From NCBI GenBank assembly GCA_964640665.1, contig CAZXHT010000002.1, forward strand, positions 105,170 to 169,169: a stretch of DNA of 64,000 nucleotides, written 5' to 3'. Under the pieces are notes generated by a model. It saw only the letters and a program-made list of their open reading frames with translations. It was not told the origin of the DNA and searched no databases. Source of the DNA: an uncultured Myxococcales bacterium. Lineage in GTDB: Bacteria; Myxococcota; B64-G9. The translations under genes were made by a program, and so were the position numbers. Of the stretch, positions 2,014 to 48,274 are shown one piece after another (the stretch's first letter is position 1; each line of letters begins with the position of its first letter).

Positions 2014-2925
2014 TTGCATCATACTCGGCCCGGTGGTACCTTTTGCGCCGTGAAATTGCTGCGTTCTAGTATTATTGCCATCTTGTGGCTCGGCGTGCTG
2101 TGGGCGGTCTCGCTGCCTGTCGGCTGCGCGCACGGGGCTCGCATCGTTCTCGATGATCCGGCCGGCGATGACAACGGGCCCGGCTCTTATCGTTACCCAG
2201 ACAATCCCGCCTTCGGCGCGGGCAGCTTCGATCTGCGCCGATTCTCCTTGACCCTCGAAAAAGACTACTGGGTGGTGTCAATCGCCTTCGCGGCCAGGGT
2301 CAAGCGGGCGCCGGTTTTCGTGTCGCGCGACGACCGGCGCGATCTCTTCATGCAAACCGTCGACGTCTACCTGCGAACCTGCGCGGAAAAGGGCCACCTC
2401 GACAGCCTGCCCGGCCGCGGAGTGATGTTCGCCCCGGGACAGGCATGGAATCGAGCACTGGTTCTCTCGCCCGTGCCCGGGCTGCTGCGCGAGGCTCTCG
2501 ACAAGACCTTCCCCGGCGCCGGGGATGTTTTCGTGCCGCGCAGGGTGCGCATAAGCGGTCACAGGCTCGTGGCCAGGGTGCCGGTCGCTTTCCTGGGGCA
2601 GGCTTGGCCCGCGGCGGTATCCGTGCTGGTCTCCGCGACCCGCTTTTCCCCCTCGTTCGATCTGATCGACCGCGCCCGGGGGCGCCTGGCTCCCGAGGGA
2701 CTGGTGATGACGGTTGAGAAATCGGCTGGCGAGTGCCGCCTGGACGATGCCGGCGGAATAGCCTGCCACTTTTCCGGTTGCGATCCGTGCGGCGGGCATC
2801 CAAACGTTATCGACCTGCTCGCGCCCGAGGGAACACAGACGGATCTTCTTTCCAGCTACAACCCAGACACCGGCGAGCCGGCCAGAATTCCGCTTGTCGC
2901 GGTCGGCCCGTCCGACAAGGAGTAG
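2014..2925 (+). CDS. Secreted glucodextranase-domain-like protein, likely an accessory of the adjacent sugar transporter
   Basis: N-terminal signal peptide (KLLRSSIIAILWLGVLWAVSLPVGCA). Motif DDPAGDDNGPGSYRYPDNPAF...GSFDL recalls the glucodextranase-like domain often encoded beside CUT1 sugar ABC systems. An alternative GTG start at 2050 is possible. Confidence 0.5.
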   Translation: MHHTRPGGTFCAVKLLRSSIIAILWLGVLWAVSLPVGCAHGARIVLDDPAGDDNGPGSYRYPDNPAFGAGSFDLRRFSLTLEKDYWVVSIAFAARVKRAPVFVSRDDRRDLFMQTVDVYLRTCAEKGHLDSLPGRGVMFAPGQAWNRALVLSPVPGLLREALDKTFPGAGDVFVPRRVRISGHRLVARVPVAFLGQAWPAAVSVLVSATRFSPSFDLIDRARGRLAPEGLVMTVEKSAGECRLDDAGGIACHFSGCDPCGGHPNVIDLLAPEGTQTDLLSSYNPDTGEPARIPLVAVGPSDKE

Positions 2926-2934
2926 TGTGAGATC

Positions 2935-4017
2935 ATGGCCGGAGTAGTCTTGAAAAACGTTACCAAGCGTTTCGGCGAAGTGGTGGCGGTACGCGACGTA
3001 AGTATCGAGATAGAAGAAGGCGAGTTTTTGGTGCTGGTCGGACCTTCCGGTTGCGGCAAAACCACTACGCTGCGCATGGTGGCCGGGCTCGAGGAAATAT
3101 CGGAAGGCGATCTGCTGATCGACGGCAAGCGCATGAACGACGTGCATCCCAAGGATCGCGACATCGCCATGGTTTTCCAGTCCTACGCCCTCTATCCCCA
3201 CATGAACGTCATGCAGAACATGAGCTTCGGCCTCAAGATGCGCGGTATGAAAAAAGCCGAGGTTAAAAAGCGCGTCGGTGAAGCGGCCGAGATTCTGGGA
3301 CTCGGCGATCTGCTGAGTCGTAAACCCAAGGAACTTTCCGGCGGCCAGCGCCAGCGAGTGGCCATGGGGCGGGCGATCGTGCGCAAACCCAAAGTTTTCT
3401 TGTTCGACGAGCCGCTTTCCAACCTGGATGCCAAGCTGCGGGTGCAGATGCGTGCCGAGATAGCCAAACTTCACCGGCGCATTGGCACCACCATCATCTA
3501 TGTCACACACGACCAGGTCGAAGCCATGACGCTGGCCGATCGTATAGTAGTCATGCAGGGTGGCCTGGCCCAGCAAATGGGCGCGCCGCTCGATGTGTTC
3601 GAACATCCCCGCAACCGATTCGTGGCCGGATTCATCGGCAGCCCACCGATGAACTTTTTGCCCTGCACTCTCGACCAAGACGCGCACATCAAGGGGGACG
3701 GCTTTAATATAGCCTTGCCCGTGAGCCTACGACACGCGGTCGAGGGCAAGAAGGGCGATGTCGAACTCGGGATCCGGCCGACCAATATAGGACTTCGAAG
3801 CGCGGAACAGGCAGACAGCCACGGCCCGAGAGGAGTGGTGGAAGTCATTGAGCCGATGGGCACGGAGACCTTTTTGAGCATACGCGTCGGCGAGGCGGCG
3901 CTTATCGTCAGGGACGAGGCTCGCAGTGAAGCCAAGGTCGGTGACGAGGTGGAACTCGTCCCGGACATCGAGCGGGCTCACTTGTTCGACGGCAGCACGG
4001 GCGAGACAATTTTCTAA
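2935..4017 (+). CDS. Sugar ABC transporter ATP-binding protein (MalK/MsmX/UgpC family)
   Basis: Walker A GPSGCGKTT, Q-loop, signature LSGGQRQRVAMGRA, Walker B FLFDEPLSNLDA, H-loop, and a C-terminal TOBE/MalK regulatory-like domain. Confidence 0.9.
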   Translation: MAGVVLKNVTKRFGEVVAVRDVSIEIEEGEFLVLVGPSGCGKTTTLRMVAGLEEISEGDLLIDGKRMNDVHPKDRDIAMVFQSYALYPHMNVMQNMSFGLKMRGMKKAEVKKRVGEAAEILGLGDLLSRKPKELSGGQRQRVAMGRAIVRKPKVFLFDEPLSNLDAKLRVQMRAEIAKLHRRIGTTIIYVTHDQVEAMTLADRIVVMQGGLAQQMGAPLDVFEHPRNRFVAGFIGSPPMNFLPCTLDQDAHIKGDGFNIALPVSLRHAVEGKKGDVELGIRPTNIGLRSAEQADSHGPRGVVEVIEPMGTETFLSIRVGEAALIVRDEARSEAKVGDEVELVPDIERAHLFDGSTGETIF

Positions 4018-4033
4018 GACAGGGACAGGTTTT

Positions 4034-6265
4034 TTGAGGCGCACGATCTCATGTTTGCTGTTTGGGTTGCTTTTAGCGCCCGGCGCGCTTGCCGGAGAGA
4101 CAATCACTCTCTGGCACTCCTACCGTGCCCAGGAGCGCGACGCGCTTGAAAAGACGATCTCCGAGTTCAACACAACGCATAAGAACATTCAGATCAAGAC
4201 CGTCTTCGTCCCTTATGACGCCTACCTCGACAAGCTGACCGCGGCCATACCCCACGGACACGGCCCGGATATATTCATCGCGGCCCACGATCGCATCGGC
4301 GGCTGGGCCGACTCGGGGCATATCGCTCCGCTCGACGGCTACCTCAAGCCCGGCATGAAAGATCGCTTTTTCAAAAAGACGATCGATCCGCTGGTATATC
4401 GCCGCAAGCTCTACGGCCTGCCGACTGCCTTCAAGAGCGCGGCCCTGTTCTACAACAAGAAGATGATAGCCAGTCCGCCGGCCGACACCGACCGGATGAT
4501 TGCCCTGGCGCGTTCTTTTGCCGGCCGCAAGAACCCTGACGGCCAGCCGATCTACGGACTGGTGTGGGAACATTCGGATCTCTACTTTCATGCCGCTTGG
4601 CTGTTCGGTTTCGGCGGCGGCCTGTTCGACAACAAGCAGAACCTGGCGCTCGATTCGCCCGAGAACGCCGCCTCGCTGGCCTTCATGCATCACCTGGTGG
4701 CCGAGCTGAAGTTGGCCCCCCAGGACGCGACTTCGATCAAAGTGACTTCACTGTTCAACAGCGGTCGCGCGGCCATGGTCATCAACGGGCCCTGGTTTCG
4801 GGGCGAGATCGACACTCGACGGGTAGACTACGGCGTGGCCGTGCTGCCCGAGATAAGCCAAAGCGGCCGGCATGCCATGCCATTCGTCGGCGCGGAGGCC
4901 TTCCTGCTCTCGGCGCACACCAAGCATCCCGCCCAGGCCTTCACTGTGATTGAACAGTTAACCCGGGACGCCGCCGCCAGGGTGCGAATTCTCGAGGGGT
5001 TTCAACCGGTGGCCAACATCCAGCTCTACGACGATCCAGCCGTGCGAGCCGATCCTGTCATGGGCGTTTTTCGCGGGCAGCTCAAGTACGCGGTGCCCAT
5101 GCGCAACACGCCCGAGATGCGCATGGTCTGGGTGCCGATGAACCACGCCCTGGTGAACGCCGTGACCGGTCGAGCCACGCCCGAGCAGGCCTTGACCGAG
5201 GCCCAGTTGAGGGCCGGCTCGCAGATAGCCGGGTTCCGCAAGGGCCGGGCGCTAAAGGCGGCAGGCACCGGCAGCGATCAGTTCGTGCGCGCCCTGGCCT
5301 GGGGTTGCGGCGGCGGGTTGCTGGTGCTGCTTATCTTTGTAGCCGTCTTCTTCAGGCGTTTCAAACGACTGCTGCATGATGCCTGGCACGAGAAGAGCGC
5401 CTATGCATACATCGGACCGGCCATGCTGGCCATAGCGGTGTTGGTTTTCGTGCCTTTCTTGGTCGGTCTGGGGCTTGGTTTCTTCCGCTATTACCAGGGC
5501 GAGTACTTCTACGTCGGCGCCAAGAACTTCACCGACATTCTCTCGTCCCGCGAGTATCCAATAAGCGATCCGTTCAGTTTCTACTACAAACTTTTTATTA
5601 CCGTCATCTGGACGGCCGCCAACGTCTTCATCCACGTGGCGCTGGGACTCTCGCTTGCGCTGCTTTTGAAAAATCCGCTGCTGAAGATGAAGGCTGTCTA
5701 TCGGGTGCTGCTTATTATTCCCTGGGCCATTCCCAACTACATCACCGCCATCATCTGGCGCGGCATGTTCGATGCCGACGACGGGGTTATAAACCACCTT
5801 TTTGGAATCGTGGGCTACTCGTGGTGGAACTCCACCGGCTCGGCTTTCGCGGCCAACCTGGTGGCCAACTGCTGGCTGGGTTTTCCCTTCATGATGGTGG
5901 TTTGCCTGGGCGCGCTGCAGTCGATCCCCAAGGATCTCTACGAGGCGGCCGATGTCGACGGGGCGAGTCGATTCCACAAGTTCCGCCACATCACCTTGCC
6001 GTTGCTCAAGCCGGCCCTGTTTCCGGCCATTATCCTGGGAACAATCTGGACCTTCAACATGTTCAACATCATTTACTTGGTCAGTCGCGGGGCGCCCAAC
6101 GGAGGCACCGACATTTTGGTGATCGAGGCTTTTCGCTGGGCTTTCGAGCGCGGAGATCGCTACGGCTACGCTGCGGCCTACTCGACTTTAATCTTCGCCA
6201 TTCTGTTTCTGTACACGCTGATGACCAATCGCATCACGCGCGCAACCGAGGGAGCCTTCGACTGA
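4034..6265 (+). CDS. Fusion protein: MalE-like periplasmic sugar-binding domain fused to a MalF-type ABC permease
   Basis: After the signal peptide (LRRTISCLLFGLLLAPGALA) comes a MalE-like region (GETITLWHSY ... GPDIFIAAHDRIGGWADSGHIAPL ... VINGPW). It is followed without a stop by 6 TM helices and an EAA loop (DVDGASRFHKFRHITLPLLKPAL). An in-frame TTG at 4034 is the likely start; the ORF-track start at 3926 overlaps malK and is unlikely. Confidence 0.7.
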   Translation: MRRTISCLLFGLLLAPGALAGETITLWHSYRAQERDALEKTISEFNTTHKNIQIKTVFVPYDAYLDKLTAAIPHGHGPDIFIAAHDRIGGWADSGHIAPLDGYLKPGMKDRFFKKTIDPLVYRRKLYGLPTAFKSAALFYNKKMIASPPADTDRMIALARSFAGRKNPDGQPIYGLVWEHSDLYFHAAWLFGFGGGLFDNKQNLALDSPENAASLAFMHHLVAELKLAPQDATSIKVTSLFNSGRAAMVINGPWFRGEIDTRRVDYGVAVLPEISQSGRHAMPFVGAEAFLLSAHTKHPAQAFTVIEQLTRDAAARVRILEGFQPVANIQLYDDPAVRADPVMGVFRGQLKYAVPMRNTPEMRMVWVPMNHALVNAVTGRATPEQALTEAQLRAGSQIAGFRKGRALKAAGTGSDQFVRALAWGCGGGLLVLLIFVAVFFRRFKRLLHDAWHEKSAYAYIGPAMLAIAVLVFVPFLVGLGLGFFRYYQGEYFYVGAKNFTDILSSREYPISDPFSFYYKLFITVIWTAANVFIHVALGLSLALLLKNPLLKMKAVYRVLLIIPWAIPNYITAIIWRGMFDADDGVINHLFGIVGYSWWNSTGSAFAANLVANCWLGFPFMMVVCLGALQSIPKDLYEAADVDGASRFHKFRHITLPLLKPALFPAIILGTIWTFNMFNIIYLVSRGAPNGGTDILVIEAFRWAFERGDRYGYAAAYSTLIFAILFLYTLMTNRITRATEGAFD

Positions 6266-6266
6266 C

Positions 6267-7454
6267 ATGCAACACTCTACCCGCTTCGGTCGCGCAATGA
6301 CCCACGCCTTTCTGATCGTCTTCACTTTGATAGTATTGTTTCCGGTCGTGAAGGTGTTCCAGATCGCACTCCAGCAGCGGCAGACGTTCGACATGCGCTT
6401 GGATCCACTTCCGGATGCCGATCTCTTGACGCTCGACAACTTCACGGATGTGGTTTCGCGCTCCAAGGCCGAAGGGCTGGGGCCCGAACTGTCCGCGGAG
6501 GACGTCTCCAGGCTTGCAGAATTTCTGTCTTCCGTGCCGCAGCCGAGCGCGGACGCGGACAGCGACGAGGCGGACGACGAGGACGAATGGGAAGTTCCGG
6601 CAGCGATGGCTTCTTTCATGAAAAACAAGCGCTGCTTCGCTTGTCACCTGTTGGGGGAAGAGGGGCGCGAGGGATTGGGCGGCGACCTTCGCTCGGCGGC
6701 AGCGCTTGGTAGATCCGGGATTGCCGAATGGCTTGCAGATCCGACGCGCGAGCGAGCGTCCGAGATGAACATCAGCGCCAAGCCCACCGGCCTGATGGAG
6801 CGCCGCAATGTCTGGGTCTTCGGCCACCAGTTGAGAAACAGTCTGATCGTCTCGCTGGTGACGACGCTACTGGGAATATTTCTGGCCTGCACTGCGGCCT
6901 ATGCGTTCTCGCGCTTCCGTTTTCCCGGTCGGCGCGCGGGTCTTCTGAGCTTCTTGGTCATCCAGATGTTCCCCGGTACCATGATGATGATCCCGATTTA
7001 CATCTTGATCGACAGGCTGGGCCTTTTGGATCAGCTGCTAGGCCTGGTGCTGGTCTACTCGACCACGGCCATTCCATTCTGTGTCTGGATGTTGAAGGGA
7101 TATTTCGACACCATCCCGAAAGAACTCGAGGAGTCGGCCATCATCGACGGAGCAAGCCGGGTGCGCATCTTCTGGAGCATAGTGCTGCCGCTGGCCAAGC
7201 CGGCCATCGCCGTGACCGGCCTGTTTTCGTTCATGACAGCCTGGAACGAGTTCATCCTGGCCGCGACTTTCATGAACGAGGAGACATCGGTCACACTGCC
7301 GGTGATGCTCAACGGTTTCGTCTCCAGGACGACGGTCGAATGGGGGCACTTCGCCGCCGGGGCGATCATCGTCTCGATTCCGGTGGTGGCCCTGTTCTTC
7401 TTGCTGCAGCGCCACCTGGTGGGAGGCTTGACGGCGGGCGGGGTGAAGGGATAG
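6267..7454 (+). CDS. MalG-like ABC sugar permease with a large periplasmic insertion containing a cytochrome c-like CXXCH domain
   Basis: C-terminus ...LQRHLVGGLTAGGVKG and EAA loop IDGASRVRIFWSIVLPLAKPA are typical of MalG/CUT1 second permeases. Between TM1 and TM2 lies a ~150-aa loop with an acidic stretch (DADSDEADDEDEWE) and CFACH ... GGDL ... EWLADP ... KPTGLM, the pattern of class-I c-type cytochromes. Confidence 0.8.
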   Translation: MQHSTRFGRAMTHAFLIVFTLIVLFPVVKVFQIALQQRQTFDMRLDPLPDADLLTLDNFTDVVSRSKAEGLGPELSAEDVSRLAEFLSSVPQPSADADSDEADDEDEWEVPAAMASFMKNKRCFACHLLGEEGREGLGGDLRSAAALGRSGIAEWLADPTRERASEMNISAKPTGLMERRNVWVFGHQLRNSLIVSLVTTLLGIFLACTAAYAFSRFRFPGRRAGLLSFLVIQMFPGTMMMIPIYILIDRLGLLDQLLGLVLVYSTTAIPFCVWMLKGYFDTIPKELEESAIIDGASRVRIFWSIVLPLAKPAIAVTGLFSFMTAWNEFILAATFMNEETSVTLPVMLNGFVSRTTVEWGHFAAGAIIVSIPVVALFFLLQRHLVGGLTAGGVKG

Positions 7455-7481: not shown

Positions 7482-8831
7482 ATGAGTAATCCTTTTGGAC
7501 TGGAACGACCTGAAATACTCGACCTGGCACCGCCGCAGCCGCGCACGGTCGACGAGACCGGGCTGAGCATCGGGCTGCTGAACGACTTGGCGCTGCGCTT
7601 TCTCTACTACGGGGGCGTCCTTTCCGGTGTCGGGCTGGCGGACGAAATGGGCCTGCCCTACTCCGGGGTGGTCGAGGAGGTGATCCACTTTTCGGCTCAG
7701 GAGAAGTTGATCGACATGAAGGGCGGCAAGGGTTTCGGCCGGGCGTCGTTCGACTATACCCTGACCGAGCGCGGGCGTGAAGTGGCACGCGAGGCCGTGC
7801 GCCGGACGTCCTATACTGGCCGGGCCCCGGTGCCTCTCGACCAATACGCCGCGCTGGTGCGGCTGCAGATGCAGGACGTGCCCTCGATTGATCGCGGAGA
7901 CATCGCCGAGGCCTTCAAGATGCTGGTTTTACCGAGCGGTTTCTACGATCAGCTCGGCCCGGCGATCAATTCGAGCCGCTCGTTGTTTCTGTACGGCCCA
8001 CCCGGCAACGGCAAGACTACAGTCGCCGAGATCGTAGCCGACATTCTTGGCGGTGAGGTGTTCGTGCCGCATGCCATAGAGATCGACGGGCAAATCATCA
8101 AGGTCTACGATCCCCTGGCGCACCGGGCGATAGATCTCGATCGGGCGCCGGTCAGGCCTCCGCCAATCAAGGGACGCCAGGTAGCCGCGCCGCTGATGAA
8201 GAAGACCGGCCCGGAGTTCGACCGGCGCTGGCTGCTTTCGCGCCGTCCATCGGTAGTTGTCGGCGGCGAGTTGACACTGGAGACGCTCGACCTGATTTAC
8301 AACGAGAACGCCCAGTTCTACGAGGCCCCCTTCCAGGTCAAGGCCAACGGCGGCATGTTGTTGATAGACGACTTCGGGCGCCAGCGGGTGCACCCGACAG
8401 ACCTGCTCAACCGCTGGATCGTCCCGCTGGAGAAGAGGATCGACTACCTGACGCTGCACACGGGCAAGAAATTCGAGATCCCCTTCGATCAGCTGATAAT
8501 CTTCGCCACCAATCTCGATCCCAAAGAGCTTGTCGACGAGGCCTTCCTGCGGCGTATCAAGTACAAGATCGAGGTGTCCAATCCCTCGGAGCGTGCCTAC
8601 CGCAAGATCTTCCGTGACGTCTGCGGGGCCAAGGGAATTGGCTATGTCGACGAGGTGGTGAGCTATATTATGAAAAGCTACTACAAGCAGTACGACATGG
8701 AACTACGCGCTTGCCATCCGCGCGACATCATCAACCTGCTCATCGACGTGGCCCGCTTCAAGCGCAAGAAGCCCGCCCTCGATCAGGAGCTGATCGACCA
8801 GGCCTGCCTGTCATTCTTCGTGGCCATGTGA
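7482..8831 (+). CDS. AAA+ ATPase (classical AAA clade) with a ~150-aa N-terminal domain of unknown function
   Basis: Walker A LFLYGPPGNGKTTVAEIV, Walker B-like GGMLLIDDFGRQ (DD rather than DE), sensor-1/SRH IIFATNLDPKELVDEAFLRRIKYKIEV. No recognisable signature in the N-terminal 150 aa. Confidence 0.7.
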   Translation: MSNPFGLERPEILDLAPPQPRTVDETGLSIGLLNDLALRFLYYGGVLSGVGLADEMGLPYSGVVEEVIHFSAQEKLIDMKGGKGFGRASFDYTLTERGREVAREAVRRTSYTGRAPVPLDQYAALVRLQMQDVPSIDRGDIAEAFKMLVLPSGFYDQLGPAINSSRSLFLYGPPGNGKTTVAEIVADILGGEVFVPHAIEIDGQIIKVYDPLAHRAIDLDRAPVRPPPIKGRQVAAPLMKKTGPEFDRRWLLSRRPSVVVGGELTLETLDLIYNENAQFYEAPFQVKANGGMLLIDDFGRQRVHPTDLLNRWIVPLEKRIDYLTLHTGKKFEIPFDQLIIFATNLDPKELVDEAFLRRIKYKIEVSNPSERAYRKIFRDVCGAKGIGYVDEVVSYIMKSYYKQYDMELRACHPRDIINLLIDVARFKRKKPALDQELIDQACLSFFVAM

Positions 8832-9641: not shown

Positions 9642-10496
9642 CTATCCTTGCCGGGCCGTGGCGGGGTTGCCGGCGGCGTAGCAGTATGGGCAAGCGTGGC
9701 CGCAGGTGTCGTACGAGCCGATGTCGCGACTTTGGCTGCAGAGGCAGTGCTTGCGCTGGCCGGGATCTTTTTTCCAGCTTTTGCCCAATCCGAAAAGGCG
9801 CTCGATCAATTCTCCGTCGATACAGGCGCCGGGCGGGATGCCGATATCCGAAAAGTCCTGCTCCTCGGCGCAGCTCAAGATTTCGATTTGATGCTTGCTT
9901 GCGCAGCGGGCCAGCTCACGCAGCAGGTCGCGTGTTTCCGGACTTCTGTCCGCGTCCGTTTCGAATTCATAGCCGGCTTCCCGAAGCGGGCGCAGGTTGC
10001 GGACGGTTTTTTTGTAGTAATCCACCAGGCTGATCATTACCCGGCGCGTGTGGGGAGCCAGGCGCTCGCACAGGGCGCTGAACTTGACCAAGTGATAGGC
10101 CTGGTCGGTGCGGTTGGAGATGATTATCGGATCGTAGCGCCAGATCACCCGTTCTGGACCGATCCGCAAAGAAAGCTTTTCGAAAGAGGCGCAACGCTCG
10201 TCGAGCGGCGGCAGGCTCGGTTCTAACTCGGGCGGATAGGCGTTCAGGGTGAACTGGAAGTAGAAACGCCTGCAGGCGCGCTCGACGGCGTCGAGCTGGG
10301 CGAACATCGGCGCCGGGTTCTTGGTCCAGAAGACGATCGCATCGATATCCCCGGGACGCAGCGAGATCTCGGAGATTTGAGCATTGTTGTACGGGTTGGG
10401 CAGGCGGACGAAACCCGCAGCCAGTCTCTCTGCAAACCATGCGGAATGAAAGGACGGCACGTCTGTCCGGCGCGATGCGGAGATGATCTGCGCCAT
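9642..10496 (-). CDS. DUF1848-family protein
   Basis: N-terminus MAQIISASRRTDVPSFHSAWF is the hallmark start of DUF1848 proteins; C-terminal Cys cluster (CLCSQSRDIGSYDTCGHACPYCYA). Confidence 0.75.
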   Translation of the reverse strand: MAQIISASRRTDVPSFHSAWFAERLAAGFVRLPNPYNNAQISEISLRPGDIDAIVFWTKNPAPMFAQLDAVERACRRFYFQFTLNAYPPELEPSLPPLDERCASFEKLSLRIGPERVIWRYDPIIISNRTDQAYHLVKFSALCERLAPHTRRVMISLVDYYKKTVRNLRPLREAGYEFETDADRSPETRDLLRELARCASKHQIEILSCAEEQDFSDIGIPPGACIDGELIERLFGLGKSWKKDPGQRKHCLCSQSRDIGSYDTCGHACPYCYAAGNPATARQG

Positions 10497-11008: not shown

Positions 11009-13480
11009 TTACGATATTTTATTCGCGTCCGTCTCGTGCATGTTGCTGAAGATCTTCACGGCCAGGGCGATCGAGGCCAACTTGCTGTCCGGCGAGTCTC
11101 CGCGCGAAGTCAACACCAGCGGCAGGTCGCCGCACAAGATCACACCGGCGGCGGTGGCGCCCGTCTGGATTGTCAAGGTCTTGTAGAGCACGTTGGCAGC
11201 GTCGATGTCGGGCATGACCAGGATGTCGGCCGTGCCCCGGATACGGCCCTGGTATTTTTTTTCTTCGGCGATGGCGGGATCGACCGCCACGTCGAATGAT
11301 AACGGCCCCTCAACGATACAGTCGTCGCGGCCCTCGAAGTGAGAGGCGATGCGCTCGGCCTCGATGGAACTTTCTATGCCGACGTTAACCGCCTCGCTGG
11401 CCGAGATCACCGCAACCTGCGGTCTGAGGATGTCCAGGTTGCCGGCCACCCGCAAGGCGTTCTCGATGATTTGTACCTTTTTGGCCTCGTCAGGGTAGGG
11501 GTTGACGGCGGCATCGGTGATCATCAATAGCTTGCTCATCCTGGGCAAGTCCATCACCACCACGTGCGACAGAAGCTGTCCGGGCAGCAGCCGCCCGCTG
11601 TCTTTTAAATACCTGAATACCCCGTGCAGCAATTTCTCGGTCTTTACGCTTCCCTTCATCAGGATGTCCGCCCGGCCAGTTTCGAGTTGACGAATCGCCG
11701 TGGCCACCGGGTTGTCGGTGTCTACTATCGAGTAGTTGTCCTCGTCGATCAGCAGGTCGAACTCGTATGCCATCTCATTGATGGCCACCGAGTCTCCCAC
11801 CAGTTGGAACCTGGCAATCTTGTAGCTGCCTTCCGCGTTAGCCCGCTTGGCTGCCAAAAGGGCCTCCTCATTGTCGGCCCCGACCAGGGCGATTCCCGGC
11901 GGCGTGCGTCCATGCACCGCGATCCGGGCGGCGTCGATTATCTCGACGGCGGAGGTAATCGGTTCGCCGGGCTTCTTGTATAACAAGGGGCGTTCGAAAA
12001 TGGTTGTATCGAGAAGTTCGTCCTCCTTTAACCGTTTACCGGCCAGGACGTCTCTTTCGGCCACGTAGTCCTTGATCGACTCCGGCCTATGGAAGCTGCG
12101 CACCAGGCCTGCGGCCATGGCCTCGTCGGCCAGCGAGCCGCCCATCCAAACCAGTGGATGTGCGAAGGTCAGGCCTGCCTCCACCAGTCCTGCCAACTCC
12201 TCGAGCTGGGTCAGTCCGCCCGAGATGGTGATGACACCCACCGGCCCGCCTAGCGCCGCAAGCTCCGCGATGGCGCTCGCTATCCGGTGGGCGAAGAAAT
12301 CCAACAGGATGCCCACCTTTTCGCGTTGCAGATTGTTCGCCCCATGACGCCTGAAGCCGATTAAAGCGCGAAAGTCATCCGTGCCCGCCAGTGAGAGCAG
12401 GCCCCCCCGCGAATAGACGACCTCGTGCAGTTCCTTGACGTTGAGATCGTTGGATCTCAAGGCATCGAGCAGGGGAACGACCGGGAGCGTTCCGCTGTGG
12501 CTGGGTGAAGGAATGCCGGAGAATGTGTCGATCAGGTTTCTGATGCGGCCGCCCCGGTGTCGGGCAATGGAGCCGGCACTGCCCAGGTGCGCGGTTACGA
12601 CGTCCAGGGTCTCGGGCTCCAACTGGAGCCAGGAGGACATCAAGCGCCAGGCGGCCTTGTGGTTGAGGTAGTGAGCCGCCCGTCCCGCCAGTCGGATTCC
12701 CGCGATTCCACACAGGCGCTCGGTCGCTCCCAACTCGTCGCTTGAGAGAGGATCGCTGACAACGACCAGGGCACCCGAGTCGCCCCCACAGGACTCGGCC
12801 ACCGTAAGCGCCAAGGGAATGCTCAACTCGTCGCCGGGTCGGCCGCGGGTGCCGGTCAGGTCGGTGAGCATTTGGGGTACTACCCGATAAGAGCCCGGCG
12901 GAATGGGTTTCAGAAAACCCGAACGAGTAGTGACACCGACAACGCTGGTTCGATCGAGCCCCCAGCGCTGCATCAACTTCATGACGCCCTCGGCTCGTCT
13001 TTCCGCCGTGTCCGGCAGGCCGGGTTGGTTAGCCACCCGGTCCCGGTTCCGGATATTGGCCCCGGCGATCCAGCTGACTCTTGTGGATGACTGTCCTGGG
13101 TTCAACACCAGCAGGTTGTCGCCCGCGTCGCGGGCCTGGTCTGCCAGCCTCGTTCCCAGGAGCCTGCGAAGTAAACGAGATGCGCCGGCCGTCTCGCGCT
13201 CGATTCTCACGCCTAGGCCCAGGGCGCGGCCCAAGAGCCTGTTAACCTCCGGTCGGCCGACCTGGGGCGCCAGCGCGCGCACCACGGCCGTGATTTCCGA
13301 AAGAGCCGAGGTCACGCTTGTGTCATCAACACCGGCGATCCTGTCGGCAATCTCCTGTAGCCAGGCATCTCCTGCGCTGGCCAACTGGCCGCTGAAAGCC
13401 AGCAGGGTTACCCGCGACCTGGCTATTTCCGAGATTGCCTCGATGACGTCGTTGCGCGCCCCCATGGCGTCACCCTTCAT
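11009..13480 (-). CDS. Fusion protein: N-terminal helical extension, butyrate/acyl-kinase-like ASKHA domain and C-terminal phosphate acetyl/butyryltransferase (Pta/Ptb) domain
   Basis: Kinase motifs LVLNPGQSSTRVSW, RSGFLKPIPPGSYRVVPQMLTDL, VTAHLGSAGSIARHRGGRI, SRGGLLSLAGTDDFRAL, GVITISGGLTQ. The PTA_PTB domain spans IALVGADNEEALLAAKRANAEG to the C-terminus. Confidence 0.8.
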   Translation of the reverse strand: MKGDAMGARNDVIEAISEIARSRVTLLAFSGQLASAGDAWLQEIADRIAGVDDTSVTSALSEITAVVRALAPQVGRPEVNRLLGRALGLGVRIERETAGASRLLRRLLGTRLADQARDAGDNLLVLNPGQSSTRVSWIAGANIRNRDRVANQPGLPDTAERRAEGVMKLMQRWGLDRTSVVGVTTRSGFLKPIPPGSYRVVPQMLTDLTGTRGRPGDELSIPLALTVAESCGGDSGALVVVSDPLSSDELGATERLCGIAGIRLAGRAAHYLNHKAAWRLMSSWLQLEPETLDVVTAHLGSAGSIARHRGGRIRNLIDTFSGIPSPSHSGTLPVVPLLDALRSNDLNVKELHEVVYSRGGLLSLAGTDDFRALIGFRRHGANNLQREKVGILLDFFAHRIASAIAELAALGGPVGVITISGGLTQLEELAGLVEAGLTFAHPLVWMGGSLADEAMAAGLVRSFHRPESIKDYVAERDVLAGKRLKEDELLDTTIFERPLLYKKPGEPITSAVEIIDAARIAVHGRTPPGIALVGADNEEALLAAKRANAEGSYKIARFQLVGDSVAINEMAYEFDLLIDEDNYSIVDTDNPVATAIRQLETGRADILMKGSVKTEKLLHGVFRYLKDSGRLLPGQLLSHVVVMDLPRMSKLLMITDAAVNPYPDEAKKVQIIENALRVAGNLDILRPQVAVISASEAVNVGIESSIEAERIASHFEGRDDCIVEGPLSFDVAVDPAIAEEKKYQGRIRGTADILVMPDIDAANVLYKTLTIQTGATAAGVILCGDLPLVLTSRGDSPDSKLASIALAVKIFSNMHETDANKIS

Positions 13481-15374
13481 CCCCTGAAGAGAACTCGTCC
13501 AGCGCCTGCGGATTTACAATGTGTCCCAGATCCTCGTTTCCAGAGAGTTGGCCGGAGACAATTCTTCTGAGCAGCCGCCTGGCAGTTTTGCCGGAAGGAG
13601 TGCGCGGAAGCTCGCTCGCGAAGAAGACCCGGCGCGGCACGGCGAAGTCGCCGATGCGTTTCTCGACATACGCGGCAAGCTCTTCTTCGATGGTTTCGCG
13701 GCCTACCTTCTCCTCGGACGCGGCCAAAACGACAAAAGCCGCCAGCAGTTCGCCCTCGGGTGAAGTAGCCCCTACCACCGCGGCCTCGCTCAACTTCGGG
13801 TGCGCCTGCAAGACCGCCTCCACCTCGGAAGTGCGCAGCGACAGGCCGCGGATCTTGACGATGTCGTCCCTGCGACTCATGAACCAGAAGAAGCCCCCGG
13901 CGTCCCGCCTGACGGCATCCGGCGTGGTGAAGGCTTCTGGAATTTTCACGAAGTACATTTCACGGTAGCGTTCCGGCTGTCCCCAGACGCCGCGCAGCAT
14001 CGCGGGCCACGAGGTCCTAAAGGCCAGGCGCCCGCCCAGGTTGGGAGCGCATTCACCCCCGGCGTCCGTGCAGACCAGGGGCTCCACTCCGGGCATGGGA
14101 ATTCCCAGTGCCCCGCCGCGGTTCAGCCCGGCATGTGCCCTGGTGCCGATTAAAGCCGCACCGCTCTCGCTCTGGATCCAAAGGTTGATTACCCGTTCCG
14201 GCCCGCGAGCCAGGCTGAGTCCCGCCGCCGCGCACAACCTCGGCGTCAGTACGCCACCGCAAGACGCCACGATCTCGAAACGATTTTTTGTCTTGAGAGA
14301 TTGCTTCTCCACATCCGCGGTCCACTCCGCAAGCCTGTCGGGTGTCGTCAGCACGCTCAGGGTGGGAAACTTCCCGAGCAGGCGGCCCAGGCGCTCGGCC
14401 TGCGATAGTTTCCCGGTCGCGGCCAGCACCAGCGTGTCCCCGGCCAGCAAGGGGCCCCAGACCCCGTGACTTTGACCGGCAGCAGAGGCAGTGTCGACCG
14501 CGCAGTAGTGGAAAGAGGCCGGGGCTTCGGATCCTTTGGACTTCGATACCGTCTTGAAGAGGACCCCGTGCGCGGTGGCCGCCTGGACCAAGAAGCCGCC
14601 GGTGGCCATCACCGATCCCCGGGGGTTGCCGGTGGTCGAAGCGGCATACAGGATGCACAAGGGATGCTCGGCGCCGGCCGGAAATACCGCCCGCTGTTCC
14701 GCGCCCCGGCTCTTTGTGAGATCGAGATACGGCACGGCGCCCGGCGGGCCCCCTTGCCCCAGCGTGACCAGGGAGGGACCGTCGAGCTTCCCGGCGAGTT
14801 CGACGACCCGCTCGTCGTAGTCAGGTCTGCCGGAAGGACCGCCGACCACTACCATCGATGCCCCGCACTGCGCGACGATGCGCAGCACCTGATCTTCCGG
14901 GTAACGCGCAGGGACGGGAACGTAGGTCATGCCCAGACGGGCCGCGGCCAGCATGAAGACGACCGCTTCGGGGAGGTTCGGAAGATAGAGCACAATCCGC
15001 ATGCCGGCTTCCATGCCCCGCGAAGCAAGCGCTCCCGAAAGGCGTATAACCCGCGCGTGCAATTCGCGGTAGCTCAAAGCGGTGAACGTGCCGTCATCGC
15101 CCAGGAACACAATGGCCGGGCGCTTGGCGGCTTCGCCCTTGATGTGCCGGTCCAGGGCGTTGTGGCATGCGTTGAGCCGACCTTCGGAAAACCACTCCAC
15201 GCGCGGCTCGCGGAAGTCTTCGTAGACCACGGTCTTGAACTCGTCGATCCAGTCCAAGCGGCCGGCCTGCACGCGCCAGTACTTCTCGCGTTCACGCATG
15301 CTTCGCTGGTGGAAGCGGACATAGTTTCGCAGAGTCAGCGGCGGTTTTTCTGAAAAGGATTTCAACTTGCCCAT
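13470..15374 (-). CDS. Acetyl/propionyl-CoA synthetase-like AMP-forming acyl-CoA synthetase with a divergent core motif
   Basis: Acs N-terminal domain (YWRVQAGRLDWIDEFKTVVYEDF...VEWFSEGRLNACHNALDRH), AMP-binding fold and C-terminal PRTPSGKTARRLLRRI. The canonical TSGTTGKPKG motif is replaced by ASTTGNPRGSV. Start taken at Met-21 of the ORF, which matches Acs N-terminal length. Confidence 0.8.
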   Translation of the reverse strand: MGKLKSFSEKPPLTLRNYVRFHQRSMREREKYWRVQAGRLDWIDEFKTVVYEDFREPRVEWFSEGRLNACHNALDRHIKGEAAKRPAIVFLGDDGTFTALSYRELHARVIRLSGALASRGMEAGMRIVLYLPNLPEAVVFMLAAARLGMTYVPVPARYPEDQVLRIVAQCGASMVVVGGPSGRPDYDERVVELAGKLDGPSLVTLGQGGPPGAVPYLDLTKSRGAEQRAVFPAGAEHPLCILYAASTTGNPRGSVMATGGFLVQAATAHGVLFKTVSKSKGSEAPASFHYCAVDTASAAGQSHGVWGPLLAGDTLVLAATGKLSQAERLGRLLGKFPTLSVLTTPDRLAEWTADVEKQSLKTKNRFEIVASCGGVLTPRLCAAAGLSLARGPERVINLWIQSESGAALIGTRAHAGLNRGGALGIPMPGVEPLVCTDAGGECAPNLGGRLAFRTSWPAMLRGVWGQPERYREMYFVKIPEAFTTPDAVRRDAGGFFWFMSRRDDIVKIRGLSLRTSEVEAVLQAHPKLSEAAVVGATSPEGELLAAFVVLAASEEKVGRETIEEELAAYVEKRIGDFAVPRRVFFASELPRTPSGKTARRLLRRIVSGQLSGNEDLGHIVNPQALDEFSSGDEG

Positions 15375-15507
15375 CTCTTGCCCCGGACGATGGTGGAATA
15401 ATCCATTACCCCAATAGTATCGAAGGCTGTCCAATCTTCACAAGGGAAACGAGAAACTGGTTCTTCCCGTTGTTGACCATCCTGTATATTGACTCTGTTC
15501 CGATCCC

Positions 15508-25418: not shown

Positions 25419-26978
25419 ATGGATGTCGACTACCTGCCGGCCTTCACGCGCGAGGGTAGGATCGAGGAGATCCCGCTTCCGGTCCTGATCGTTCACATCC
25501 TGGACGAAAAACTCAGCGGCAGGCTGTACATCGAGGAAGAGGACACGAAGTCTTGGATTTACTTCGATGAGGGGTTTCCGGCCGGTGTCTTCGCCCCAAA
25601 GTCGCAGGATTTTCTGGGGACCGTCCTGCGTGAACTTGGGTATATCGACGATGCCGCTTTTAACCAATCGTTAATGATGATGGCCAAGACCAAGCGCCTG
25701 CAGGGCGAACTTCTGGTGGAGGACGGCAAGATCGACTCGGAGCAGCTCGAGCGCGCCCTGTCGCTGCAACTCGCCCGCAAGCTGGCCCGCCTTTTCGTTG
25801 TTCGTGCGGGTGCTTTTCGGTTCGCCGAGGACGAAGAGCTTATTCCTCCGATGGAGCCGATTCGCATAAACACCTATGCCCTGATCTACAACGGCATCAA
25901 GAACAGCTACCACGGCGAAAACCTGAAGGAAGGCCTGCAGATCCTGGTTGGCAGGTCTTGCAAGGTGACGGGCCTCTTCGTCGAGCGCAAGGAGCTGTTC
26001 GAGTTTCCTCCAGACGACGTGGCCGACGCCGAACTGCTGCGCGAATTCCGTCTGCCCCAGGTTTTCGTCAGGGCCACCCGCAGCGGTCCGACGTCGGGGA
26101 TGATGATGTTACTGGCGCTTCTCTATTGCGGCATGCTCGAAATGGAAGAGGTCGATTTTGCCGTGCCCATCAAGGGCTCGCAGGCGCCCCGGGCGGCGCC
26201 GCACAAAGCCGCTCCGGCACGTGCCGGCCGGCCCAGGCAAGGCGCTAAGAAAGTGTCCGCCGAGCTGGTGAAGAAAATCAACGATAAGTTCGAGCAGATC
26301 AAATCTGGAGACCTGTGGCAGGTTATCGAGGTGGAAAAGGATGCCGGCTCCGAGGTCGTAAAGAAGTCGTTCCTCACGTTGGCCAAGGTTTACCACCCAG
26401 ACCGGGTTTCCGGGTCGGGTGACGAAGATCTCTCGCATCGCATGGACCTGATCTTCGCCCGGATCAACGAGGCCTACCAGGTGCTCAGCGATCCCAATCG
26501 CCGGGCCGAGTACGACAAGAAAGCGTCAACCGACACGAAATCGGACCAGCCCCGTCCGGAAGAGGCCCGGGTACAGTTTCAGAAGGCACAGGTCTACCTG
26601 AAAAAGAAAGACCTGACCAAGGCGGCCGAGGCGGTTCGCTGGGCCGCCGATCTCGACAACAGCAACGGCGATTACAAGGCCTACAAGGCCTGGATAGAGT
26701 TTCTGCGGGAGAAGCAAGGTTCGCCGATTGAGAAGCTGACCCAGGTCAAGGCGGAGCTGATCGACATCGCCAAGGGCTATCCTCAGTCTTTCCACGCGTA
26801 CAAATTCCTGGCCAAGATTTGCAAGGAACTAAAAGACATGCCGACCTACCACAAGGCCCTGAATAACGCCGCCCAGTTGAACCCCAAGGATGTCGATATT
26901 GCCCGTCAGCTACGCCTGTTCAACATGCGCAAGGAAAAAGAGGGACGGGGCTGGCTCAAGAAGAAATTTAAAAAGTGA
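25419..26978 (+). CDS. PATAN (DUF4388) domain protein with a J-domain and TPR-like C-terminus
   Basis: N-terminal DUF4388/PATAN-like region (IPLPVLIVHILDEKLSGRLYI); a bona fide J-domain with HPD (KSFLTLAKVYHPDRVSG...INEAYQVLSDPNRRAEYD); C-terminal helical repeats. Confidence 0.7.
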   Translation: MDVDYLPAFTREGRIEEIPLPVLIVHILDEKLSGRLYIEEEDTKSWIYFDEGFPAGVFAPKSQDFLGTVLRELGYIDDAAFNQSLMMMAKTKRLQGELLVEDGKIDSEQLERALSLQLARKLARLFVVRAGAFRFAEDEELIPPMEPIRINTYALIYNGIKNSYHGENLKEGLQILVGRSCKVTGLFVERKELFEFPPDDVADAELLREFRLPQVFVRATRSGPTSGMMMLLALLYCGMLEMEEVDFAVPIKGSQAPRAAPHKAAPARAGRPRQGAKKVSAELVKKINDKFEQIKSGDLWQVIEVEKDAGSEVVKKSFLTLAKVYHPDRVSGSGDEDLSHRMDLIFARINEAYQVLSDPNRRAEYDKKASTDTKSDQPRPEEARVQFQKAQVYLKKKDLTKAAEAVRWAADLDNSNGDYKAYKAWIEFLREKQGSPIEKLTQVKAELIDIAKGYPQSFHAYKFLAKICKELKDMPTYHKALNNAAQLNPKDVDIARQLRLFNMRKEKEGRGWLKKKFKK

Positions 26979-48253: not shown

Positions 48254-48274
48254 TGGCCGACATAATACGGTTGA

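Follow-up and report, generated by a model that had tools for sequence, protein, structure and literature searches.

A cytochrome c-like insert in the first, predicted periplasmic loop of a MalG-type ABC permease from uncultured Myxococcota

Introduction

The gene at positions 6267 to 7454 of a 64-kb window, by which the whole stretch of DNA analysed here is meant, raises the question of what a module with a haem-binding motif could be doing in the permease of a sugar importer. In the initial annotation, a class I cytochrome c-like domain was placed in the first periplasmic loop of a MalG-type permease, and a coupling of transport to the periplasmic redox state was suggested. The first of these claims held, being supported by homology, with haem attachment inferred.

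In the general view, ABC importers are regulated from the cytoplasmic side, by inducer exclusion on MalK or by trans-inhibition, or through the amount of binding protein available. If a redox cofactor formed part of the docking surface on the periplasmic side, these transporters would have a new kind of input. No precedent was found in the literature searched for a cytochrome c domain associated with an ABC permease, for a CXXCH motif in the periplasmic loop of a permease or for a circularly permuted cytochrome c. The fusions in Sco1/SenC-cytochrome c (2l4d), caa3 subunit II (1w2l) and CcoP of cbb3 are terminal and involve redox enzymes or copper chaperones, whereas the insert in the window is internal and lies between two transmembrane (TM) helices of a non-redox nutrient importer.

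Two further systems offer partial parallels. In qNOR, a cytochrome c-like domain that derives from a NorC-NorB gene fusion lies in a periplasmic loop between TM1 and TM2 and has lost both haem and CXXCH. The insert shares with it the placement of a domain of cytochrome c fold between the first two TM helices, and differs in the conservation of CXXCH and Met. CydDC is an ABC transporter with activity modulated by bound haem; it has the exporter fold, binds the haem non-covalently within the TM region and contains neither a cytochrome c domain nor CXXCH. Its likeness to the present case is that of haem on an ABC transporter that affects, or could affect, the ATPase cycle.

The permease gene and its operon

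The region 6267-7454 (plus strand) is a stop-free ORF of 395 aa, and its translation is the sequence quoted in the initial annotation. Its ATG (6267) is located one base past the TGA stop of the upstream gene, which encodes a MalE-MalF fusion, and a GAGGGAG sequence lies ~11 nt 5' of it. The protein matched BPD_transp_1 (Pfam PF00528) with 69.8 bits (cut-off 26.4) over aa 203-385. The top NCBIfam model was MalG (NF008231), which was aligned to its last residue (296/296) with 182.5 bits, below the equivalog cut-off of 261. Therefore, the protein is filed here as MalG-type and not as a MalG orthologue.

Six hydrophobic segments were detected in this protein. TM1 (6303..6371, plus strand; aa 13-35) was assigned from hydropathy, charge bias and homology to the MalG N-terminus, and aligned with TM1 of insert-free MalGs. 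The N-terminus contains 2 K+R and no D+E, compared to 16 K+R and 30 D+E in the loop after TM1. With the N-terminus cytoplasmic, the loop after TM1 (P1) is therefore periplasmic, an inference made from sequence alone that rests on MalG topology (PMC6906923) and on this charge bias. The EAA loop, the MalK coupling motif, was found at 7128..7190 (plus strand; aa 288-308). The identity of the ORF as a six-helix MalG-type ABC permease is thus shown.

As a rival explanation, the architecture could be an artefact of the gene model or of the assembly, with the true MalG starting from an internal Met or with a chimeric or frameshifted insert. In its favour, the NCBI proteins P0038, P0040, P0041 and P0047 begin within or past the insert and have the usual MalG length. 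Against it, the in-frame sequence upstream, which every orthologue and the insert-free sisters share, codes for the conserved TM1 of MalG and the beginning of P1 and has an omega (dN/dS) of 0.07-0.19, and a MalG starting from the internal Met would be without TM1 and have a wrong topology. In addition, the ATG at 6267 has a ribosome-binding site and abuts the MalEF stop, and the same architecture recurs in 12 species genomes and in independent assemblies from JGI, ENA, NCBI and Logan. An artefact is all but excluded, and it is shown that truncated NCBI gene calls mask the architecture of several orthologues. This exposes an annotation problem, as public gene calls that start within the insert conceal the architecture in those records.

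The first gene of the conserved operon encodes a Glucodextran_C protein with an SLH-like glucan-binding module (2014..2925, plus strand; PF09985, 103 bits), found 5' of MalK in most of the orthologous loci that reach that far. It is followed by a MalK/UgpC-type ABC ATPase with OB_MalK and TOBE_2 regulatory domains (2935..4017, plus strand; Pfam ABC_tran, OB_MalK and TOBE_2), for which the NCBIfam scores were 488.8 bits for UgpC and 451 bits for MalK. The next gene, for the MalE-MalF fusion (4034..6265, plus strand; Pfam SBP_bac_1 and BPD_transp_1, NCBIfam MalE and MalF), probably starts at TTG 4034, the mechanical ORF beginning at 3926. Its product has a signal peptide and a MalE-like binding domain, followed by a single linker TM helix and a MalF core that lacks the P2 loop. 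Downstream of MalG, an AAA+ ATPase of unknown role (7482..8831, plus strand) follows immediately in nearly all orthologous loci that reach that far, and about 1.1 kb further off in locus L007; it has not been shown to belong to the transporter and is given as context only. The MalK / MalE-MalF / MalG operon is kept across 12 insert-bearing species loci, and the insert-free sisters P0042/L013 also retain the MalE-MalF fusion.

Within the fusion protein, aa 60-437 matched MalE proteins in the PDB, including 6ffl (E 4e-39), and aa 528-772 matched residues 257-510 of E. coli MalF (PDB). The 6ffl entry is named 'maltose/maltodextrin transport permease homologue', and we take it to be, probably, the MalE domain of the Bdellovibrio bacteriovorus fusion. 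That organism has a maltose transporter in which MalE and MalF form one fusion protein (Licht et al. 2019, as described in PMC6906923), as they do in the window, whereas no cytochrome insert in MalG has been reported for the Bdellovibrio system, although its MalG sequence was not compared here.

Anatomy of the insert

Compared to the sister MalGs P0039, P0042/L013, P0059 and L014, in which it is missing, the insert occupies 6477..6812 (plus strand; aa 71-182) according to the alignments. At the junction, an insert-free sister reads EGFG-AEEKQT-WVFG and the window protein reads EGLG-[P73...M177]-ERRNV-WVFG. The extra sequence in P1, as measured against P0039, P0042/L013 and P0059, amounts to ~110 aa.

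Three elements precede the haem-binding motif. The first, a PELSAEDVSRLAEFLSSV helix (6483..6536, plus strand; aa 73-90; pLDDT ~91, also supported by HMM alignments), looks like the C-terminal helix of the preceding domain in tandem cytochromes and could be a permuted C-helix. It is followed by the acidic linker PQPSADADSDEADDEDE (6537..6587, plus strand; aa 91-107), which differs in both length and sequence between orthologues and for which pLDDT ranged from below 50 to 55. The third, WEVPAAMASFMKNK (6588..6629, plus strand; aa 108-121), is the predicted N-terminal helix of the cytochrome fold. It was modelled as a helix by AF2 (pLDDT ~90), was aligned to the N-helix of relatives and precedes CFACH, as class I c-type cytochromes require. 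These structure models are tentative.

CFACH itself (6633..6647, plus strand; aa 123-127) is the predicted attachment motif for haem c, with C123, C126 and the proximal H127. The GLGGDL turn (6672..6689, plus strand; aa 136-141) corresponds to the GPxL of other class I cytochromes; G136, G138, G139 and L141 are invariant or almost so among orthologues, and GGxGGxL is also present in free-standing relatives. WLADP (6729..6743, plus strand; aa 155-159), a helix-end motif, is common to relatives (as WLxEPT) and to the Sco/cytochrome c domain 2l4d. The last motif before TM2 is PTGLM (6783..6797, plus strand; aa 173-177), which aligns with PTGAM of relatives above the Pfam cut-off. Its M177, the predicted distal haem ligand, sits 50 residues past H127, the distance expected in class I being about 40-60, and this ligand role is inferred.

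With respect to the initial annotation, CFACH, the acidic linker, WLADP, PTGLM and the EAA loop were all located in the translation. The figure of ~130 extra residues failed on size, and so did the GP(D/N)L turn, which is in fact GGDL. What had been missed is that the C-terminal helix of the fold seemingly lies upstream of CXXCH.

Relationship to cytochromes c

Direct comparison of the native sequence with Pfam was sub-threshold both for Cytochrom_C (PF00034; 16.3 bits, cut-off 21.3) and for Cytochrome_CBB3 (PF13442; 14.5 bits, cut-off 27). Of the 25 orthologous loops, 17 matched PF00034 (E 0.0013 at best). TIGR02603, the Planctomycete-type putative haem-binding domain, scored 18.2 bits (E 0.0019) without reaching its cut-off of 68.15, in an alignment limited to loop residues 75-119. 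As a word-index homology search with the loop alone gave no matches, the whole protein and an exhaustive profile search were needed.

A profile built from 25 orthologous loops was searched against 1.84 billion representative proteins, among which it found 747 matches at E <= 1e-3, the best of them at E 1e-28 to 1e-16. One to nine CXXCH motifs were present in each of 147 of the 149 other listed matches, and the best ten scanned were all above the Pfam Cytochrom_C cut-off (10/10; 32-161 bits). The nearest matches (P0121-P0128, P0136, P0145, P0150 and P0171; E 1e-28 to 1e-13) have GGxGGxL and WLxEPTxENAxxLxIRxxPxGAM in common, and all seven scanned among them passed the Cytochrom_C cut-off. When an HMM of the canonical domains of these relatives was compared with the MalG cores, scores of 56-73 bits were obtained, and of 28-45 bits in a sub-clade with a 15-aa deletion. 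Against PDB sequences, the top six matches of the loop profile and most of the others were cytochromes c; the best were a c555 trimer (E 6.9e-6, from three weak stretches of the repeats) and 2l4d (E 5e-4). Therefore, the insert is homologous to cytochromes c, a conclusion that rests on the profile search and not on a direct Pfam match. None of the 149 other listed matches contained a permease core, so the architecture is confined, within the reach of the profile, to a single 50%-identity cluster.

The insert has its closest relatives in membrane-anchored dihaem c-type cytochromes from Planctomycetota/Omnitrophota MAGs (P0121-P0128; the P0123 family is of ~390 aa). The likeness lies in CLACH, GGxGGxL and WLxEPTxENAxxLxIRxxPTGAM, and in an inter-domain segment, made up of C-helix and linker, that aligns with the upstream part of the insert. 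In contrast to the insert, these proteins are free-standing, with an N-terminal multi-TM anchor and two canonical domains that each have their own C-terminal helix, and they pass the Pfam cut-offs. Their genes adjoin a CCP_MauG peroxidase gene and, by source names, come from a different phylum.

The initial annotation had also proposed checking the insert against the two Pfam cytochrome profiles, looking for other MalGs that carry it and looking for a c-type cytochrome maturation system. None of the checks that it named went against the cytochrome c reading, each being either favourable or neutral. The outcome of the first was sub-threshold for the single sequence and favourable for the profile of orthologous loops. 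The second search was successful, with 36 clusters at 90% identity and 12 species-level genomes. For the third, a maturation system was seen in one related genome alone, where ResB (ResB/CcsB; 113.6 bits) adjoins CcsA (154.5 bits, with the WGDYWVWDPKETW motif) on the contig of the orthologue L010. The WWD motif of CcsA/CcmC/CcmF was absent from the 64-kb window, to which the search of the source DNA was limited, and occurred at one site among the fetched loci, in the L010 protein assigned to CcsA by Pfam.

A possible circular permutation

The insert resembles one off-register period of a tandem cytochrome c, with the C-terminal helix first and the Met last, and has the looks of a possible circular permutant. 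In this view, it would start right past the place where a Met ligand would be, with aa 73-90 resembling the C-helix of a preceding domain, and would continue with the acidic linker, the N-helix, CXXCH and the core up to its own Met ligand. As a consequence of such an off-register cut, the two ends of the module would lie next to each other in the fold, an arrangement well suited to insertion into a loop, and the upstream helix could stand in for the missing C-terminal helix.

HMM alignments ran unbroken from profile position 34/37 through CXXCH in P0136, P0150, P0125 and most multi-domain matches, the best unbroken stretches covering positions 36/37-122. When the window sequence was re-permuted, it matched Pfam Cytochrom_C with 22.1 bits (cut-off 21.3) over positions 7-89 of 90; no match to this model was obtained with the core alone or with a reversed-helix control. 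With a home-made HMM, re-permutation gained 5-7 bits, compared to about 1.5 for shuffles. The re-permuted form exceeded the best of 20 shuffles in just 13 of 36 orthologues, and with the same HMM no gain was seen in the sub-clade with the 15-aa deletion. The permutation tests are thus no more than suggestive, leaving permutation as a possibility that is not significant for every orthologue. A truly permuted packing is as easily doubted as believed, given that the packing is inferred and that model coordinates were not inspected. A cytochrome c spliced into a loop as one off-register tandem period would be of use for protein engineering.

Conservation, gain and loss

The long orthologues (n = 36 clusters at 90% identity) have 375-407 aa and are 61-100% identical to the query. 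Both Cys and the Met are kept in all 36, even though loop identity drops to about 42%, and CXXCH is intact in 35, the sole exception being P0028, with CFACD in its place (His-to-Asp). In the 25-loop alignment, the C, C, H and M residues are invariant together with a Gly/Leu/Pro framework. The P, G and M of PTGLM are invariant in 25/25 aligned loops, and PxGxM is found in 36/36 long orthologues. The insert showed omega values of 0.1-0.5, compared to 0.01-0.09 for the TM core. Both purifying selection on the insert and a conserved motif pattern that exceeds chance are shown by these data.

A haem-less relic would be a cytochrome c-derived domain that no longer binds haem and survives as a small helical domain in the loop, a situation known from qNOR. 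This explanation finds support in the change of GPxL to GGDL, the C-helix outside its canonical position, the sub-threshold Pfam scores, repeated loss, the internal deletion, the one CFACD variant and an omega for the insert above that of the core. Against it stand the retention of the two Cys and the Met in 36/36 and of the His in 35/36 long orthologues despite the divergence of the loop, and the fact that CXXCH is normally lost in such relics. Furthermore, GGxGGxL is native to relatives that pass Pfam, and hence is no degeneration. A relic is very unlikely.

The 36 clusters and the 12 species-level genomes with insert-bearing MalGs are all from Myxococcota/'Deltaproteobacteria' MAGs. In a neighbour-joining tree without bootstrap support, the insert-free sisters P0039 and P0042 were scored as secondary losses. 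A single gain in a small Myxococcota MAG clade followed by at least two losses is therefore a tentative possibility, and if at least two losses occurred, transport itself does not need the module. Together with the 15-aa deletion of one sub-clade and the His-to-Asp change of P0028, these losses may indicate a module that is dispensable and perhaps decaying in some lineages.

Two candidates were rejected. MalG relatives of ~600 aa, considered as carriers of a larger cytochrome, contain no CXXCH and have a Cys-rich insert and an N-terminal TM extension instead. A second CXXCH in the window, in the ORF 47697-48263 (minus strand), was dropped because it reads as an Arg/Gly/Pro-rich out-of-frame translation.

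Possible roles of the haem domain

The ORF likely codes for a functional MalG-type permease, part of a MalK2/MalE-MalF/MalG oligosaccharide importer, that has a mono-haem class I cytochrome c in P1, haem binding being inferred. C123 and C126 would bear a thioether-linked haem, attached via the periplasmic System II (CcsBA), and H127 and M177 would be its axial ligands. In E. coli, MalG-P1 and MalF-P2 cross-link to the N-lobe of MalE (PMC6906923). As the present system has a MalE-MalF fusion and no P2, the haem domain is inferred to sit at the docking place of the tethered binding domain. The oxidation state of the haem, or its Met-on/Met-off state, would alter the docking surface for MalE, and productive docking, hence ATPase activity and sugar uptake, would track the periplasmic redox state.

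This docking mechanism is inferred, and the case for it falls a little short of the case against. We nonetheless favour, as the overall explanation, a module at the MalE docking face that responds to redox state, without holding it to be probable, its haem binding and function both being inferred and no experiment being available. The coupling to the periplasmic redox state suggested in the initial annotation thus remains inferred and is preferred to a purely structural role. The operon content speaks against a redox reading, as it hints neither at a redox partner nor at a need for redox control.

A structural or docking module is also possible. The domain would then bind haem c for the mere stabilisation of its fold and would take the place of the lost MalF-P2 as a cap or docking platform on the periplasmic side for the tethered MalE, without redox signalling. 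This agrees with a MalF partner that lacks P2, P1 and P2 both touching the MalE N-lobe in E. coli (PMC6906923), and with an operon without redox genes. Also in its favour, other MalGs have inserts at the same P1 site that are unrelated to the cytochrome insert, Cys-rich in P0066/P0075/P0119 and Lys-rich in P0048, which suggests that bulk itself can be useful, whatever its chemistry. Against it, the insert-free P0042/L013 have the same MalE-MalF fusion and work without such a platform, and this explanation also demands strict retention of C, C, H and M. As that retention is needed by the structural and the redox readings alike, sequence alone cannot separate them.

A third explanation is a membrane-tethered electron carrier, in which MalG would anchor a functional cytochrome c that serves a periplasmic enzyme, such as a dihaem peroxidase or a sugar dehydrogenase, apart from transport. 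However, no peroxidase, dehydrogenase or other redox gene was found in the conserved operon or its flanks, either in the window or in the orthologous locus L015, and no electron source is evident. The loop of a polytopic importer would also be an odd anchor where a single TM helix would suffice. An electron carrier is unlikely.

A bolder form of the favoured redox reading is also possible, in which the importer cycle is gated directly by the covalent c-type haem of a circularly permuted cytochrome c in P1. The oxidation or ligation state of the haem would control docking of the tethered MalE, and the periplasmic redox state, or oxidants such as H2O2, would switch uptake with no transcriptional regulator involved. 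If true, this would be a compact natural example of allosteric coupling through domain insertion, and would document in nature how a cytochrome c domain can be inserted by permutation out of a tandem repeat. The reach of the find is limited by a small uncultured clade, a module that is dispensable in some relatives and the lack of any experiment.

The likeness to E. coli MalG (MalFGK2-MalE) extends to the six-TM type I ABC importer permease with its EAA loop, to a GLTAGGVKG C-terminus that fits the family consensus, as seen in the alignment of the NCBIfam MalG model to its last residue, and to neighbouring genes that provide a MalK-type ATPase, a MalF-type partner and a binding protein of the MalE type. 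P1, which holds the insert, is the loop found cross-linked to the N-lobe of MalE (PMC6906923). P1 of E. coli MalG has ~50 aa, whereas that of the window protein has ~150 aa and contains the CXXCH domain. A further difference may lie in the substrate, which for the window importer could be another alpha-glucan or oligosaccharide.

As a separate observation on database naming, relatives of the permease appear in JGI as 'arabinogalactan oligomer/maltooligosaccharide transport system permease'.

A MalG-type permease with a conserved module in its P1 loop

The ORF at 6267-7454 (+) translates, as the initial annotation had quoted, into a protein of 395 amino acids, and its ATG at 6267 lies one base past the TGA that ends the gene before it, with a ribosome-binding site (GAGGGAG). 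The product belongs to the type I ABC importer permeases and is recognized by Pfam BPD_transp_1 over residues 203-385 with 69.8 bits (cut-off 26.4). The top NCBIfam model was MalG, aligned up to the last residue, but its 182.5 bits did not reach the equivalog cut-off of 261, so the protein is called only "MalG-type" here. Six TM segments were detected by hydropathy (approximately residues 13-35, 190-215, 224-248, 256-276, 301-323 and 360-385), the N-terminus is positively charged and the loop at residues 36-189 is net acidic (30 D+E vs 16 K+R), in agreement with the known topology of MalG, in which P1 is periplasmic (PMC6906923).

The motifs CFACH (residues 123-127), GLGGDL (136-141), WLADP (155-159) and PTGLM (173-177) and an acidic linker (91-107) were all found in the P1 insert, where the initial annotation had placed them. 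Its estimate of ~130 extra residues failed. Across the site, the insert-free relatives read ...NFEYVVSRSNTEG-H-WVFGHQL (P0039), ...VVGRSKTEGFGAEEKQTWVFGHQL (P0042, from locus L013) and ...STTSPDGSWLFGQQL (P0059), compared to ...VVSRSKAEGLG[PELS...PTGLM]ERRNVWVFGHQL in the window. As these relatives set the boundaries, the extra piece measures ~105-112 residues (71-182).

A whole-protein search retrieved 36 clusters at 90% identity, of 375-407 amino acids and spanning the whole query, and 12 insert-bearing loci were found in GTDB species genomes, all of them Myxococcota, 'Myxococcales' or 'Deltaproteobacteria' MAGs; thus, other MalG homologues do carry the same insertion. Both cysteines and the Met of PxGxM were kept in all 36 long orthologues, and CXXCH was intact in all except one (P0028, CFACD). 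When 25 loops were aligned, the two cysteines, the histidine, M177 and a Gly/Leu/Pro framework were invariant, with a mean column identity of 54% and an identity to the window as low as 42%. By the Nei-Gojobori method, dN/dS for nine pairs was 0.1-0.5 in the insert vs 0.01-0.09 in the TM core, which indicates that the insert is translated and under constraint, evolving faster than the core. The periplasmic P1 loop of the permease therefore holds a module that is conserved and under selection. That the module is a haem-less relic is very unlikely, the haem-binding motif being kept in 35 of the 36 proteins.

A gene-model artefact is all but excluded. The NCBI calls for the MAG proteins P0038, P0040, P0041 and P0047 (loci L004, L005 and L007) begin at a Met inside or just after the insert, giving a "sugar ABC transporter permease" of 219-282 amino acids without TM1, in which the architecture is hidden. 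These internal starts are almost certainly wrong, because TM1 would be removed.

Homology of the module to class I cytochromes c

Scanned directly, the window sequence stayed below threshold with Pfam Cytochrom_C (16.3 bits, cut-off 21.3), Pfam Cytochrome_CBB3 (14.5 bits, cut-off 27) and NCBIfam TIGR02603 (18.2 bits, cut-off 68.15), and 17 of the 25 orthologous loops gave weak Cytochrom_C matches. The decisive result came when the 25-loop alignment was used as a profile to search 1.84 billion representative proteins exhaustively: 747 of them matched at E <= 1e-3, and 93 reached E <= 1e-10. Among the 149 other listed matches, 147 contained 1-9 CXXCH motifs and none had a permease core, and Pfam Cytochrom_C was passed by all ten that were scanned (32-161 bits). 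Through this search, the cytochrome c homology claimed by the initial annotation held: the P1 module is homologous to class I cytochromes c.

The closest relatives of the insert are free-standing cytochromes (P0121-P0128, P0136, P0145, P0150 and P0171), which share its oddities, namely C(L/F)ACH, GGxGGxL replacing GPxL, and WLxEPTxENAxxLxIRxxPxGAM. An HMM of 19 canonical domains from relatives gave 56-73 bits for most MalG cores and 28-45 bits for a sub-clade with a 15-residue deletion. Among PDB sequences matched by the 25-loop profile, cytochromes c predominated and occupied the top six positions; a c555 trimer reached E 6.9e-6 summed over three repeat stretches of ~10 bits each, 2l4d (Sco/cytochrome c domain) reached 5e-4 over one single stretch, and cytochrome c4, CcoP, c552 and peroxidases followed lower. 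The structure model of the loop had a pLDDT of 72.6, and that of the trimmed domain a pLDDT of 78.8 and a pTM of 0.71. As haem proteins are frequently modelled badly without their cofactor, this weak agreement was taken as compatible with a cytochrome c fold, not as proof.

The literature searched gave no precedent for an ABC importer permease with a cytochrome c domain, and as far as the loop profile reaches, the architecture was limited to one 50%-identity cluster. Both component families are well known; within that scope, the novelty lies in how they are combined and in how the module was inserted.

A search for a CcsA/CcmC/CcmF signature was negative in the 64-kb window. In L010, an orthologue locus from a 'Deltaproteobacteria' MAG (features at 25-2720 and 4475-5620), the System II maturation genes for ResB/CcsB (PF05140, 113.6 bits) and CcsA (PF01578, 154.5 bits, WGDYWVWDPKETW) share a contig with the mal operon and precede it by ~7 kb. 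Therefore, at least one member of the clade has System II, a conclusion not extended to the window's own genome. The stretch of L010 between these genes and the operon also encodes an IS200-like Y1 transposase fused to a DnaA_C-type HTH.

Among the long ORFs of the window, just one more has a CXXCH, at 47697-48263 (-); its frame is Arg/Gly/Pro-rich and has the appearance of an out-of-frame artefact of high G+C, not of a cytochrome.

Probable off-register organization of the module

Each domain of the canonical relatives runs in the order N-helix, CXXCH, core, PxGAM and C-terminal helix (e.g. ...PTGAM GAIHLTSDEAQLLADALFEHL). In MalG, PTGLM runs almost directly into TM2, so the C-terminal helix is missing after the Met, and the insert opens with GLGPELSAEDVSRLAEFLSSVP, after which come the acidic linker and the N-helix. 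HMM alignments ran unbroken from this upstream segment into the domain that follows in P0136 (profile 34-141), P0150 (34-140) and P0125, and the best stretches of most multi-domain matches began at loop-profile position 36-37. These alignments support the correspondence of the upstream segment to the C-helix of a preceding tandem domain; the insert thus appears to correspond to a single repeat unit of a tandem cytochrome, starting right behind one Met ligand and ending at the following one. The ends of such a unit would be adjacent in the canonical fold, which would suit insertion into a loop, and the upstream helix may fill the C-helix position, as a circular permutation by duplication and truncation.

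When the helix was moved behind the Met, the window sequence passed Pfam Cytochrom_C (22.1 bits, positions 7-89 of 90), and neither the core alone nor a reversed-helix control gave a match to this model. Two other orthologues gained 5 and 1.6 bits with Pfam. With our own HMM, the gain was 5-7 bits vs ~1.5 for shuffles, but no more than 13 of the 36 orthologues scored higher in re-permuted form than with the best of 20 shuffles, and the deletion sub-clade showed no gain. The upstream helix had the highest pLDDT in both models (~91). Support from these tests is mixed: a true permuted packing could as well be wrong as right, and the off-register origin is better supported.

Operon context and putative role

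The operon encodes, in order, a Glucodextran_C protein, MalK, a MalE-MalF fusion, MalG and an AAA+ ATPase, and recurs in the orthologous loci as far as each contig reaches. The mechanical ORF of the fusion (3926-6265) overlaps malK, so its true start is probably the TTG at 4034, which has a ribosome-binding site and yields a 743-residue product with a signal peptide, a MalE domain, a linker TM helix and a MalF core; JGI orthologue calls agree with such a start. Residues 60-437 match MalE structures, including 6ffl (E 4e-39), which we take to be the Bdellovibrio MalE domain, deposited only as 'permease homologue'. The MalF part (528-772) aligns to E. coli MalF 257-510, so the ~180-residue P2 loop is absent. 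A MalE-MalF fusion, as found here, was already known in Bdellovibrio (Licht et al. 2019, described in PMC6906923).

By inference, CcsBA would attach haem c to C123 and C126, H127 and M177 would be its ligands, and the haem domain would occupy the face on which the tethered MalE docks. In the preferred model, changes in haem redox or ligation state would alter this face and so tune docking, ATPase activity and uptake. We hold this model tentatively, its chances being somewhat below even. That the module is only a structural docking cap, at the same putative position, is also possible but less likely. It can be speculated that a periplasmic redox switch would be useful to an anaerobe that occasionally meets oxidants.

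The AAA+ ATPase gene (7482-8831, 449 amino acids) follows MalG also in L001-L009 and L011-L013, including the insert-free L013, the L007 copy being ~1.1 kb further downstream; the protein is 73-96% identical across species, with only weak matches, to Cdc48/VCP-type P-loop proteins. Further on are genes for a DUF1848 protein (9642-10496, -), an 822-residue protein with PTA_PTB and a weak acetate-kinase-like region (11009-13480, -), acetyl-CoA synthetase (13470-15434, -) and a 1410-residue BcrAD_BadFG + DUF2229 activator-type protein (16894-21126, +). This set, with its phosphotransacetylase, acetyl-CoA synthetase and BcrAD/BadFG-type activator, hints at a fermentative or anaerobic metabolism. 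Isolate names from the scan of GTDB genomes (Guay, Zod, AS...), on nothing more than our reading of them, may point to hydrothermal sediment, a sulfidic spring and anaerobic digesters as sources. Two DUF4388-domain proteins, one with DnaJ and one with TPR repeats (25419-26978 and 31814-33373), and a 955-residue protein with four MopE-type putative metal-binding repeats (36581-39448) are taken to be typical of Myxococcota.

Gain, loss and relatives of the module

In a neighbour-joining tree of TM cores, without bootstrap support, all insert-bearing proteins formed one clade, within which the insert-free P0039 and P0042 were nested. Across the site P0042 reads EGFG...AEEKQT, possibly the scar of a precise deletion. 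In the sub-clade P0009-P0022, a stretch of 15 residues (the PTRENAxxLGIxx segment) is gone, and in P0028, within that sub-clade, the His is changed to Asp. From this pattern, the module seems to have been gained once, lost at least twice and eroded to some degree, and transport is evidently independent of it.

The closest free-standing relatives are membrane-anchored dihaem proteins of ~390 amino acids, named 'c-type cytochrome' and assigned to Planctomycetota or Omnitrophota MAGs where a source is given. In the near-identical contigs L017 and L018 (4754-7185) and the independent L019 (4826-7167), their gene is immediately downstream of that for a CCP_MauG dihaem cytochrome c peroxidase, and L019 also has AhpC, Fur and MerR genes close by, which suggests a peroxide-detoxifying electron chain. 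The free-standing subfamily is therefore likely, as inferred from its gene neighbours, an electron-transfer cytochrome tied to peroxide metabolism. For the MalG module itself, a role as a membrane-tethered electron carrier is unlikely.

Other MalG lineages carry unrelated inserts at the same P1 site. The ~600-residue relatives P0066, P0075 and P0119 have a Cys-rich, helical-looking segment together with a ~230-residue N-terminal multi-TM extension, and the inserts among P0048, P0049, P0051 and P0053 are a segment rich in Lys and a short Cys-x-Cys loop. P1 of MalG appears to be an insertion hot spot.
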